Below are positions 58,401-61,400 of a stretch of 64,000 nt of DNA, piece after piece. This DNA is from Escherichia coli (GTDB lineage: Bacteria; Pseudomonadota; Gammaproteobacteria; Enterobacterales; Enterobacteriaceae), in assembly GCF_029227855.1 (NCBI RefSeq), contig NZ_CP074357.1. One strand, 5' to 3'. Each line of letters opens with the position of its first letter. Within the stretch, counting starts at the first letter, position 1. The position numbers were made by a program.

Positions 58401-61400
58401 GCTATCGAAGGAAAGCCGGATGCGGTTGAAACTATAGCAAATGCTTACGTGAAGCTCGGTCGCCATCGAGAAGGTGTCGTGGGCTTTGCTCAGTGCTACC
58501 TGTTCGACGCGCAGGACATCGTGACGTTCGGCGTCACCTATCTTGAGAAGCATTTCGGAACCACTCCGATCGTGCCTCCGCACGAGGCCGTCGAGCGCTC
58601 TTGCGAGCCTTCAGGTTAGAGGCCGTCGACAATGATAATCTGGATCAACGGACCTTTCGGCGCCGGAAAGACGACGCTCGCTAAGCGGCTGCGCGATCGG
58701 CGTTCCAAATCGCTGATCTTTGACCCCGAGGAAATCGGGTTCGTGGTGAAAGAAACGGTCCCCATGCCAGCGAGCGGAGACTATCAGGATCTCCCCTTGT
58801 GGAGGGGACTTACGATCGCGGCGGTCAGGGAGATTCGAAGGAATTACTCGCAGGACATCATCATCCCAATGACGCTCGTGCACCCGGACTATCTGACTGA
58901 GATACTCGACGGGGTAAGGCGGATCGACGATCAGCTGCTGCACATCTTTCTGACGCTCAACGAGGACCTATTGCGTCACCGGATCGCGAACCAGACCATG
59001 CATCCTGACCCGAATCGAAATGCGGAGATTCGAGAGTGGCGATTAGCGAATGTCGCCCGATGCTTGGCCGCAAGGGAACGGCTTCCATGCACAACCCGTG
59101 TTCTCGATAGTGGTGCACACACCAGCGATGAACTCGCAGCGATGGTGCTCGACGGAATCGATGGGCGCACCTGATCGCCTTCGACGCCTGCGCAAAGCGT
59201 AGCGCGAGGGTGGCGGGCTCACGACCAAACGCCCAGAGGTCGATCATCGCAGGGATGTTTGGCTTTGTGGTGCGGACGACGGGACTCGAACCCGTACTCT
59301 CACAGAGAAGCAGATTTTCGTACCACCTCGACTTTCGCCGCCGTCTGATGACGTTCGTGGTCTGGACTGTCCCTTCGCCATTGCCCGAAGGCTTTAGGCG
59401 CCGCCCGTCCAGTCTCTACACCTTCCCCCGAAGGGGCTTGGCTCGGGATTGGCTTAGGGTATTGCCCGTTAGCGTTCCCCGACTTTGAGCGGTTCTACTC
59501 CGCGGATTTCCCCGCGGGCACTCCAATTTTAAAGTCTGCTGCGTCTACCGATTTCGCCACGTCCGCCTTTTTTCGCCGTTCCTAGCGCTCGTGCGATGCA
59601 CCTATGTTGCACCTAGCGCCGAATCGTTCTTCGTCATCCTGAAAAACCACGTCTCCTAAAGCCTTGCATAGCTTATCTTTTCTCCACCACGAACTTTTTT
59701 GTGGGATGGTAGAAAAAAAGACTTTTTAAGTCCGCTGGCTTGCCAGGCCTTGTTAGCTTGTACGGTCATGGTTATCGGGTAAAGAATATTGACGGCATCG
59801 CTGGTGTCGGTGGCTGAAAAGCCGGCTCCCATCAGGGCAATAGCCATTTCAGATGCAGGCGTACAGGGCAATGGTCAACAGCTACAGCCTGTCTGACGAT
59901 TCCGGCGTCATGGCTGCGGCGGCTATCACGCATTTTTTGTTCGGTCAGGCGGTGTTTTCGTACCTCAATGGTTGGAGCGTGTTGATCGGACCTGGTACAG
60001 GTTTGGACAGCACGGGCTGCAAATACGCAAGGGATTTAATGGGCCTGGTGGCGTTCACGGCTTTTATCGTGACGTTTCTGTTCAGGGGCTACTCATAATC
60101 TCGTGGCTCGGCGGTTCCCGGCACACCATGACAGTAAGGAAGGACCCTGTGTCTCAACTCTCCCAGCTTCGAAGCCCCGCCGCCGTGCAGGCTGCCATCG
60201 ATGAGTTCGTGCAACTGGGCCGCACGAAATTCCTGGCGCGCCACGGCTACGGCAAGTCCCGCGACTTCCTGGTACGTGATCCGAAGACCGGCACCGATTG
60301 CGATTCCAAGGCCATCGCCGGTGTGGCCTTCGGCAAGCAATTTCCCGAGCAGGGCCCGCTCACTGCTGACAGCTTCTCCGGTGGCGAGGCGACCGTCGTT
60401 CCGGCGCTGACGCGGCTCGGGTTTCGCATCATTCGCATCGGCGAAGACTGGTCCGAAGAAGAGGTCCTGGCCACGGTCGAAGACTATTTCGACATGCTGC
60501 GTGCCGAGGCGGCTGGGGAGCCGTACAACAAGTCCGAGCACAACCAGGCACTGCGCCAACTGCTGAACGGTCGCAGCAAGTCTTCAGTCGAGCTCAAGCA
60601 CCAGAACATTAGCGCCGTACTCGATGCCCTGGGCCTGCCCTATATCAACGGCTACAAGCCACGCGGCAACAGCCAACTGCTGCTGCGTAAATCCGTACAC
60701 GCCTACGTTCTGGAACATCAGCAGACGGTCGGCGCTCTTGTCGATGCCCTGGAGGAGGTAAAACTTCCGGGTGACAAAACCTACCGAGCGGCTTTGGTAG
60801 AACCACCCGCCCGTGAAGTGCTTGTGCGTACCCCGGCATCTCTACGGCAACGCCTACCGCGAAAGTTCGATTATGCCGCTCGCGATGAAGCCAACCGCAA
60901 GCTGGGCCGGGCAGGGGAGCAGTGGGTGATTGGCTACGAACAGCAACGCCTGACCGAGCTCGGCCACCCAGAGCTTTTTCAGCGGCTGGATTGGGTGTCC
61001 GACACCCAGGGAGACGGTGCGGGGTTCGACATCCTGTCGTTCGAAGAGGACGCCCATGAGCGCTTCATCGAGGTGAAAACCACCAATGGCGGGGTAGGCT
61101 CGTCTTTCTTGGTCAGCCACAACGAACTCGAATTCTCCAAGGAGGCGGGCGATCAATTCCATCTGTATCGCGTGTTCCAGTTTCGGGACGGTCCGCGCCT
61201 GTTCACGCTACCCGGCGACCTCAGCCAACATGTGCATCTCAAGCCGACGGGCACTGTTGCAAATAGTCGGTGGTGATAAACTTATCATCCCCTTTTGCTG
61301 ATGGAGCTGCACATGAACCCATTCAAAGGCCGGCATTTTCAGCGTGACATCATTCTGTGGGCCGTACGCTGGTACTGCAAATACGGCATCAGTTACCGTG

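Follow-up and report, generated by a model that had tools for sequence, protein, structure and literature searches.

The feature of interest in the DNA described here, a 64,000-nucleotide stretch of Escherichia coli (contig NZ_CP074357.1 of assembly GCF_029227855.1; "the window" below), is a transfer RNA (tRNA) gene that is split by a group I intron and sits inside an antibiotic resistance module. It is very likely that this plasmid-borne gene is a genuine, structurally intact tRNA-Leu(UAA) of alphaproteobacterial origin, carried as a passenger in the aac(3)-IId–tmrB module that is bounded by copies of the insertion sequence (IS) IS26. A preliminary description of the window had proposed a tRNA-Leu(UAA) with a group I intron between U34 and A35, and this proposal is borne out by ARAGORN, by Rfam, by covariation across 59 introns, and by the conserved intron core. 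The gene is made up as follows.

59268-59566, minus strand: the whole split tRNA-Leu(UAA) gene, from the sequence and from ARAGORN on the joined exons
59566-59532, minus strand: exon 1, 35 nucleotides (nt), with the acceptor 5' strand, the D-arm, the anticodon stem 5' strand, and C32 U33 U34
59531-59319, minus strand: group I intron, 213 nt, starting UAAAAUUGGAG and ending GGUACG, placed by Rfam RF00028 and exon mapping
59318-59268, minus strand: exon 2, 51 nt, with A35 A36 A37 A38, the anticodon stem 3' strand, the variable arm, the T-arm, the acceptor 3' strand, A73, and CCA

When the exons are joined in silico, they make an 86-nt molecule that ARAGORN calls tRNA-Leu(UAA). The cloverleaf left after removal of the insert has a 7-base-pair (bp) acceptor stem (GCGGACG/CGUCCGC), a D-arm with the D-loop AAAUCGGUAGA, a 5-bp anticodon stem (GCAGA/UCUGC), a 7-nt UAA loop, a long variable arm, and the T-arm GGGUUCGAGUCCC, which lies in exon 2. 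The discriminator base A73 and the 3' CCA are encoded in the DNA (CGUCCGC-A-CCA at 59277-59268). All of the elements quoted in the preliminary description (acceptor, D-loop, anticodon stem, long variable arm, T-arm, and CCA) are present, as are its intron core blocks GAGCCAAGC, GAAGGUGUAGAGACUGGACGG, and CCUAAAGCC. Its insert of about 213 nt between U34 and A35, ending in G, is exactly 213 nt long; the terminal intron G (omega-G) is 59319 and is followed by the exon 2 sequence AAAAUC. The intron mode of ARAGORN reported the unspliced gene as a "tRNA-Stop(tta)" with a 221-nt intron, having chosen the wrong anticodon stem, so the exon boundaries were set from the family pattern CUU/...G/AAAA. 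The same boundaries served as the selection criterion for homologues, which means that they and the omega-G are shared by construction among the roughly 60 introns of the family.

The intron is of the classical Leu.3Ug type in subgroup IC3 and is compact. It has no open reading frame (ORF) in its 213 nt and therefore no homing endonuclease. A model of helices P1 to P9 was drawn onto the sequence using the curated bacterial tRNA intron alignment of Williams 2020, and 64 of its 64 pairs are standard in this copy. A fold of this kind had been expected from the preliminary description, and all the helices form, including P7 and P1 with its guide pairing. P3 and P7 together form a pseudoknot in the model, and P7 would be the guanosine-binding helix, judging from what is established for group I introns. 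The helices, in their order along the transcript, are listed here.

59520-59535, minus strand: P1, exon ACUU and intron UA with the guide UGGAGU; the splice-site U.G is 59532/59523
59500-59517, minus strand: P2, a 7-bp hairpin with a GAAA tetraloop; all 7 pairs have compensatory changes
59487-59492, minus strand: P3 5' strand CCGCUC, with its partner at 59401-59406
59443-59482, minus strand: P4-P5-P5a domain, with P4 UCGGGG/UCCCGA, J4/5 AAC, and J5/4 CAA, from the model and the minimum free energy (MFE) fold
59420-59442, minus strand: P6 GCC/GGU and P6a CCCC-UUCG-GGGG
59410-59416, minus strand: P7 5' strand G(A)GACUG, with a bulged A
59401-59406, minus strand: P3 3' strand GGGCGG, the pseudoknot partner
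59376-59400, minus strand: P8 CGCC/GGCG and P8a GCC-UUCG-GGC, from the model and the MFE fold
59364-59369, minus strand: P7 3' strand CAGUCC
59322-59361, minus strand: P9 ACCAC/GUGGU, P9a CGUC/GACG, and P9b CGGC-GAAA-GUCG, from the model and the MFE fold

The strongest evidence for the model comes from its relatives. The core pattern (P7-P3-P8-P7) was scanned over a collection of species-representative genomes, giving at least 120 matching stretches, and among the matches listed about 60 are tRNA-Leu(UAA) genes split at CUU/...G/AAAA and 34 are tRNA-Arg(CCU) genes. The covariation alignment joined this intron with 58 of the tRNA-Leu introns (n = 59). In it, 95.9% of the cells are paired under the model compared to 28-46% when the partners are slid, pairs changed on both sides number 30 compared to 12-21, and the covariation score is 0.299 compared to at most 0.067, with none of 500 shuffles matching the observed value. 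Compensatory changes are found in P3, P5, P6a, P7, and P8. For example, one pair of P3 is U-A in 34 introns, C-G in 24, and U.G in one, and P5 shows a C-G/G-C exchange at 34:25. Three of the four pairs of P8 covary, as do all three of P8a and two further pairs of P1, in which the splice-site U.G is kept by every intron (59/59). The pairs of P4 form in 100% of cases and hardly vary. At the position of P7 that the search pattern left free (R and Y), the pair is A-U in 53 introns and G-C in six, and it is broken in none.

The plasmid copy itself looks intact and without signs of decay, because it departs from the other 58 introns at only three of the 134 columns in which they are conserved to 90% or more (the family median is two), and two of these three make up the compensatory G-C pair of P7. 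The third, an A to G change before the 3' strand of P9, is common to three chromosomal copies. Compared to the copy in a Roseovarius metagenome-assembled genome (MAG), exon 1 is identical and exon 2 has one change, in the loop of the variable arm. Within the intron, most of the changes fall in loops or preserve pairing (such as U-A to C-G in P9a and G-C to G.U in P8), and a few are at unpaired or junction positions. A chance resemblance or a dead pseudogene could account for an Rfam score under the gathering cut-off and for the silence of default tRNA finders, both of which are seen here. Such an explanation is nevertheless exceedingly improbable for a sequence with every modeled pair in place, a conserved core, and 94-96% identity to chromosomal genes of other bacteria, from which it differs mostly in loops or in ways that keep the pairing.

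Of course, there are also points that weigh against a genuine, intact alphaproteobacterial gene. The Rfam RF00028 match (59541-59349, minus strand, E 9.3e-8 in a local search of 651 nt) scores 36.8 bits, under the gathering score of 50, and so falls short of the curated cut-off. The chromosomal copy in Roseovarius is likewise below it, at 38.0 bits, and there is no bacterial intron among the members of the RF00028 seed, so it is the model that undervalues this subclass, and the low score says nothing against the copy. The MFE fold of the intron alone recovers P1, P2, P4-P5, P6a, P8, and P9a/b, and its energy does not stand out significantly from that of shuffled sequences (z = -1.25); a pseudoknot such as that of P3 and P7 is beyond MFE folding. 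This is why the comparative evidence is relied upon. Within that comparison, the other positions of P7 and some of those in P3 were preset by the search pattern, so the invariance of those positions carries no weight. The nearest relative and the taxonomy refer to the matches listed, at least 120 in number, and closer ones are possible. The near-identity of the plasmid copies, described below, reflects recent spread and cannot show whether selection or neutrality is at work. Lastly, the sequence, the cloverleaf, the helices with their covariation, and the conserved core are shown directly; that the intron is catalytic, that enterobacteria transcribe the gene, and that the leucyl-tRNA synthetase (LeuRS) of the host charges the product is inferred.

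The preliminary description had foreseen that standard pipelines would miss the split tRNA, and they do. ARAGORN in its default mode finds no tRNA in the 64-kb window, and Rfam at its gathering thresholds reports nothing at the split gene, only an RNA-OUT and two attI/aminoglycoside leaders elsewhere in the window. RefSeq records have no feature annotated under the 299 nt. Full-text literature searches returned no description of a tRNA or an intron in the aac(3)-II/tmrB module, for which only the protein genes are given. A complete group I ribozyme and tRNA gene left unannotated marks a blind spot of standard annotation, one that is easily mended by a lower Rfam threshold together with an intron-tolerant tRNA search, such as Williams's tFind. 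What is new here is the setting, since the class of intron is already known: few aminoglycoside-resistance modules are commoner in Enterobacterales than this one, and the gene that it carries is unannotated and apparently undescribed.

The 299-nt gene is widespread. It is found in 635 of 5,426 complete E. coli genomes, at 588 plasmid and 82 chromosomal places, and 656 of the 658 E. coli records with the split tRNA have it at 99% identity or more. Truncated copies occur in 11 E. coli records. Among plasmids in PLSDB, 1,292 of 72,556 carry the gene, in hosts that include Escherichia, Klebsiella, Salmonella, Acinetobacter, Enterobacter, Citrobacter, Pseudomonas, and others, and in pCTX-M3 (NC_004464) the 299 nt are present at 100% identity. 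The neighborhood in the window is laid out as follows.

56675-57494, plus strand: left IS26, from its ORF and edge, with the extent taken from the known 820-bp length
57495-57724: ISVsa5/IS10 fragment, which contains RNA-OUT at 57609-57678 (plus strand) just upstream of aac(3)-IId
57759-58619, plus strand: aac(3)-IId, from the RefSeq annotation of the identical region
58632-59174, plus strand: gene for a tmrB-like AAA ATPase, convergent with the tRNA
59175-59267: spacer of 93 nt from the tmrB stop to the 3' end of the tRNA; the environmental contigs L139 and L140 have a collinear spacer
59567-59736, minus strand: block upstream of the tRNA, conserved with its nearest relatives
59728-59745, minus strand: what is left of a second, decayed exon 1 copy, ending CAGCGGACUU
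59737-60129: 393 nt that separate the tRNA block from the DUF3883 gene, without homology to any of the loci compared
60149-61276, plus strand: DUF3883 gene (ScoMcrA_N and NOV_C)
61250-62069, plus strand: right IS26, in the same orientation as the left, from its ORF and edge, with the extent taken from the known length

The segment between the IS26 copies thus spans about 57495-61249. The preliminary description had put the tRNA 94 bp beyond tmrB; the two are indeed adjacent, and the exact gap, counted from the tmrB stop at 59174, is 93 nt. At the other end, the similarity of the DUF3883 gene to its relatives stops around 61250, where the end sequence of IS26 begins, so the last codons of this ORF are read from IS26. 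RefSeq also has two small hypothetical ORFs, at 59656-59847 (minus strand) and 59871-60098 (plus strand), and the former, which overlaps the conserved non-coding block upstream of the tRNA, is probably spurious. Elsewhere in the window, matches to RF02912 (attI/aminoglycoside leader) at 32630-32702 and 62960-63035, both on the plus strand, mark two class 1 integron cassette sites.

Within the module, the tRNA seems to go with the IId version. There are 910 complete E. coli genomes with aac(3)-II; the IId allele (at least 99% identity) accounts for 722 records and alleles 95-99% identical for 240, and the count of the tRNA (656 records) follows that of the IId allele. Other aac(3)-II/tmrB alleles, whose DNA is 96.4-96.6% identical (L135/L136 from Salmonella and L137/L138 from Klebsiella), have an IS right after tmrB and no tRNA. 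The IS is of the IS3 family and begins at window position 59184, or it is IS91-like (with a Y2 transposase) and begins at 59129. These different mobile elements after tmrB suggest that the alleles were captured or trimmed on separate occasions. Since the examined examples of other alleles do without it, the tRNA is not needed for resistance, and it is most likely passenger DNA.

Where, then, did the passenger come from? Both the tRNA and the aac(3)-tmrB pair point to Alphaproteobacteria on the basis of sequence similarity. Nearly all of the matches listed in the genome scan (at least 120) are alphaproteobacterial, and the best among those listed, at 94.6% over 299 nt without gaps, is the Roseovarius sp. 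MAG, the sole named near relative. A scan of metagenomes added tRNA relatives at 94-96%, including L165/L179 at 96.0% and L146 at 95.0%, the latter having the best match upstream of the gene (81%); the plasmid module is not among them. Relatives in the 94-96% range include Ga0153956_1001009, Ga0182743_1003864, Ga0164243_10018104, and JACIYT010000013.1. The guanine-plus-cytosine content is 59.5% for the tRNA and 59.8% for aac(3)-IId, compared to 48.4% for the whole window, which agrees, together with the taxonomy of the relatives, with the GC-rich donor that had been proposed. The relatives lose similarity to one another at the same two edges, 59268 and about 59736, as they do to the plasmid copy. 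These edges had been considered as breakpoints specific to the module and were rejected; since the relatives diverge from each other at the same points, the edges are no evidence of recombination in the module.

The block that contains aac(3)-IId and tmrB (57725-59172) has its own relatives. It shows 84-86% DNA identity to metagenomic contigs (L003-L005 and L141) in which an aac(3)-II-like gene overlaps a tmrB-like gene in a chromosomal setting, and whose neighborhood, with BA14K and EF-hand proteins and an extracytoplasmic function (ECF) sigma factor, is syntenic with Sinorhizobium meliloti. In S. meliloti itself (L006-L008), tmrB is present at 81% and aac(3) is missing. No tRNA follows tmrB in the syntenic contigs. 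As a side observation, these contigs point to rhizobia and their relatives as a natural reservoir of the aac(3)-II/tmrB pair.

A link between tmrB and the tRNA is found in L139 and L140, two environmental contigs free of IS, in which the aac(3)-tmrB pair is 81% identical. One of the flanking permeases in L139 is closest to Sinorhizobium and Ensifer proteins (86-87%). A single BLAST alignment runs through aac(3), tmrB, the spacer, exon 2, and the last 44 nt of the intron, and then stops. This leaves a 95-nt fragment of the tRNA gene after tmrB (L139:5544-5735 and L140:818-1009, minus strand), without any 5' part. The fragment carries structurally damaging substitutions, UCUGC to UCUAC in the anticodon stem and A58 to C in the T-loop, and is therefore a relic and not an active attP. 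Its presence means that the junction of tmrB with the tRNA 3' end predates the capture by IS26 and existed in alphaproteobacteria. A complete tRNA joined to tmrB was found in none of the 37 metagenome contigs or the examined genome matches. Because the nearest tRNA copies reach only 96% and the nearest aac(3)-tmrB only 86%, the true donor is unsampled; a nucleotide search for the donor, which the preliminary description had suggested, thus leads to the alphaproteobacterial lineage and stops short of the exact donor.

One could also consider a late mosaic, in which the tRNA joined tmrB only on plasmids, through rearrangement by IS, a scenario that is silent on the donor of aac(3)-II. The nearest relatives of the blocks do differ, being Ensifer-like for aac(3)-tmrB, Roseovarius-like for the tRNA, and from Stutzerimonas and Pseudomonas for DUF3883, and the remnant of exon 1 upstream of the tRNA breaks off near 59737, as though a breakpoint lay on the DUF3883 side. 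The IS-free contigs L139/L140, however, have Rhizobiaceae-like flanks and the same junction of tmrB, spacer, and tRNA 3' end, and a break on the DUF3883 side leaves the tmrB side unaffected. A mosaic assembled this late is accordingly very unlikely. It is the DUF3883 side that may have joined later. This block (60130-61250) has 84-89% protein identity to genes of Stutzerimonas and Pseudomonas that sit in defense-type islands after a helicase gene of about 1,700 codons, near OLD-family and integrase genes. The idea that the tRNA accompanies DUF3883 in those relatives was rejected since the helicase gene precedes DUF3883 there, and no remnant of the helicase is found in 59567-60200.

Intron-bearing tRNA-Leu genes are also found on plasmids of Alphaproteobacteria, since the conjugative 317-kb plasmid NZ_CP094524.1 of Bradyrhizobium sp. 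ISRA443 has a split tRNA-Leu(UAA) (L002:4001-4290) that is 71.5% identical to the one in the window. It lies about 750 nt from the trbI-trbF transfer genes.

A further question is whether the tRNA marks an integration site, meaning that tRNA-Leu was the attachment (att) site in the donor, that aac(3)-II and tmrB sat at the tRNA-proximal end of what had integrated, and that IS26 captured the junction. This is possible and on the doubtful side, and it is compatible with an intact passenger gene of alphaproteobacterial origin. The 3' end of the tRNA faces tmrB across the 93 nt, the 3' fragment (P9 and exon 2) beside tmrB in L139/L140 resembles a partial att copy, and the 5'-half pseudo-copy upstream of the tRNA in the nearest relatives resembles an att relic. 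Also, Ensifer-like chromosomes hold the aac(3)-tmrB pair elsewhere without the tRNA, so the pair has moved. On the other hand, no tyrosine or serine integrase is found among the ORFs of the module or beside the tRNA in contigs L078 and L140, the Roseovarius contig included, which is weak evidence as IS elements have cut the module short. Searched across the 64-kb window with 2-3 mismatches allowed, the last 16 and 26 nt of the tRNA each turn up at a single place, so there is no att repeat and no second copy of the tRNA 3' end. The fragment in L139/L140 is damaged and hence a relic, and the last 95 nt of the tRNA have no hybrid signature, with eight differences to L139 and seven to Roseovarius. 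Suggestive as they are, both partial copies in the relatives are decayed and have no integrase nearby. The proposed role of the tRNA as a marker for the place of aac(3)-II/tmrB in its donor is borne out in part, by the age of the junction; of an island, neither an integrase nor an att repeat was found.

The upstream pseudo-copy deserves a closer description. A second copy of exon 1 lies about 195 nt upstream of the tRNA in seven contigs (L146, L149, L158, L165, L179, L148, and L078) and is identical to exon 1 at 33 of 35 positions in L149. The nearest relatives have all 35 nt; only the 3' third is left in the window, and the truncation at about 59737 suggests a break on the DUF3883 side. In the relatives, the pseudo-exon runs on as CUU-AAAA, like a tRNA-Leu without an intron, and then diverges: a hairpin (GACUU/AAGUC) and a T-run come next, followed by CUACCA, the complement of UGGUAG in the D-arm. 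It could be an att-type remnant of a 5' half or a regulatory or terminator structure. The 160 nt between the pseudo-exon and exon 1 were considered as a decayed copy of the intron and rejected, as the similarity is not above that of shuffles.

How might the gene work if it is transcribed? The tRNA-Leu intron of Anabaena and the tRNA-Ile intron of Azoarcus are the IC3 models of the guanosine-initiated splicing pathway. By analogy with them, the precursor transcript would fold so that the guide UGGAGU and the end of exon 1 form P1, with the U.G at the splice site, and an exogenous guanosine held in P7 would attack the phosphate after U34. The omega-G (59319) would then replace the guanosine in the binding site, and the 3'-OH of U34 would attack the bond before A35. 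This would release a linear intron and the ligated 86-nt type II tRNA with its encoded CCA and A73. Self-splicing is consistent with the undamaged core. P10 would be weak in this model, as the guide has a G where most relatives have a U, opposite the first base of exon 2; UGGAGUG is common to seven chromosomal relatives, so the G-type guide is a normal variant.

That all of this happens in Enterobacterales, with the gene transcribed, the intron splicing itself out, and the foreign tRNA-Leu(UAA) joining the translating pool, is unlikely. In this scenario, the tRNA would be functional cargo, an extra or replacement tRNA-Leu(UAA) that aids the success of the IId module, and the same small chance applies to its possible roles, such as the decoding of UUA/UUG or the buffering of attacks on host tRNAs. 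Both the intron and the tRNA are undamaged, and the tRNA is kept in about 91% of the E. coli records of the IId allele (656/722). By its DNA sequence, the spliced product resembles no tRNA gene of the host, with no blastn match among the chromosomal tRNA genes of E. coli. Identity rules for tRNA-Leu include A73 and the form of the D-arm; the gene has A73, and its D-arm takes the form usual for tRNA-Leu, so charging by LeuRS would be plausible. The case is weakened, however, at the level of expression. No sigma-70 promoter is found upstream of the tRNA on its strand at the threshold of the tool, the best lenient candidate matching 7 of 12 positions, and a hairpin and T-run upstream of the tRNA (59732-59713, minus strand) would block read-through into it. 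The direct repeat TAGGTGCA-ACA-TAGGTGCA at 59615-59597 (minus strand), about 30-50 nt upstream of the tRNA and kept in most close relatives, might be a site for a promoter or a regulator. Furthermore, no tRNA is present in the examples of other common aac(3)-II alleles that were examined, truncated copies exist, and retention is explained by the position between two IS26 copies 3.8 kb apart. The split tRNA is probably without functional consequence for the host.

The practical value of the finding lies in annotation practice and in tracing the origin of aac(3)-II. For the aac(3)-IId/tmrB segment, the origin is absent from those established in a curated survey of 2021 (PMC7782503). tRNA genes with introns are good lineage markers, and this one suggests that the segment came from Alphaproteobacteria, as do the chromosomal aac(3)-tmrB pairs in Rhizobiaceae-like contigs. 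The exact 299-nt sequence, together with the junction of tmrB and the tRNA, CCCGTCGTCCGCACCA-N(85-115)-GATCAGGTNNNCCCATCGAT, offers a specific probe for the donor in environmental data. Should the gene be expressed and spliced after all, an active group I ribozyme and an extra tRNA, both from a resistance module, would be at work in about one in eight sequenced E. coli genomes, with some effect on host translation, tolerance of tRNA-targeting toxins, or plasmid fitness. Provided that the RNA is made, clinical isolates would offer a natural system for group I splicing and the use of a foreign tRNA in E. coli.

Several known systems can be compared with the passenger gene. The module itself is the IS26-aacC2(aac(3)-II)-tmrB unit of pCTX-M3-type plasmids, of which the published accounts give no tRNA or intron; aacC2-tmrB has been described with IS26 or Tn2 (PMC5517477). 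The tRNA-Arg(CCU) introns of Alphaproteobacteria (Arg.5Ug, e.g., in Agrobacterium) have the same core and the same class of host, whereas their tRNA and insertion site differ. A tRNA-Leu(UAA) group I intron in a subsurface gammaproteobacterium, an environmental isolate in which the gene is chromosomal and without a link to resistance genes, is said to have been reported by Vepritskiy et al. in 2002 in J Bacteriol; like the plasmid copy, it would be a proteobacterial case, outside the cyanobacteria. The Azoarcus tRNA-Ile(CAU) intron (Ile2.5Ug), the minimal IC3 ribozyme, is compact, ORF-less, about 200 nt long, and GC-rich, like the plasmid intron, and has the same GAAA tetraloops on P2 and on hairpins of the P9 region. 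Its alignment row, Aol6.Ile2.5Ug, is near-identical in the J6/7-P7-P3 core (GGUGUAGAGACU.GACGG), although it interrupts another tRNA at another position of the anticodon loop. Self-splicing of the Azoarcus intron has been demonstrated experimentally, whereas that of the plasmid intron is a prediction. The closest likeness is to the Leu.3Ug introns, the IC3 introns of cyanobacterial and plastid trnL (Williams 2020, bioRxiv 10.1101/2020.01.27.920355). The census in that work covered 80,413 genomes and probably counted copies of the plasmid intron, and its text mentions neither plasmids nor resistance modules. These introns interrupt the same tRNA at the same point (CUU/intron/AAAA) and have the U at -1 in a U.G wobble, the terminal G, and the P1-P9 core, all as in the plasmid copy, and the seed Ncf2.Leu.3Ug aligns with it block for block. 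They differ in setting: the Leu.3Ug introns sit at a chromosomal housekeeping locus, whereas the plasmid copy, short at 213 nt, lies between two IS26 elements on enterobacterial resistance plasmids.

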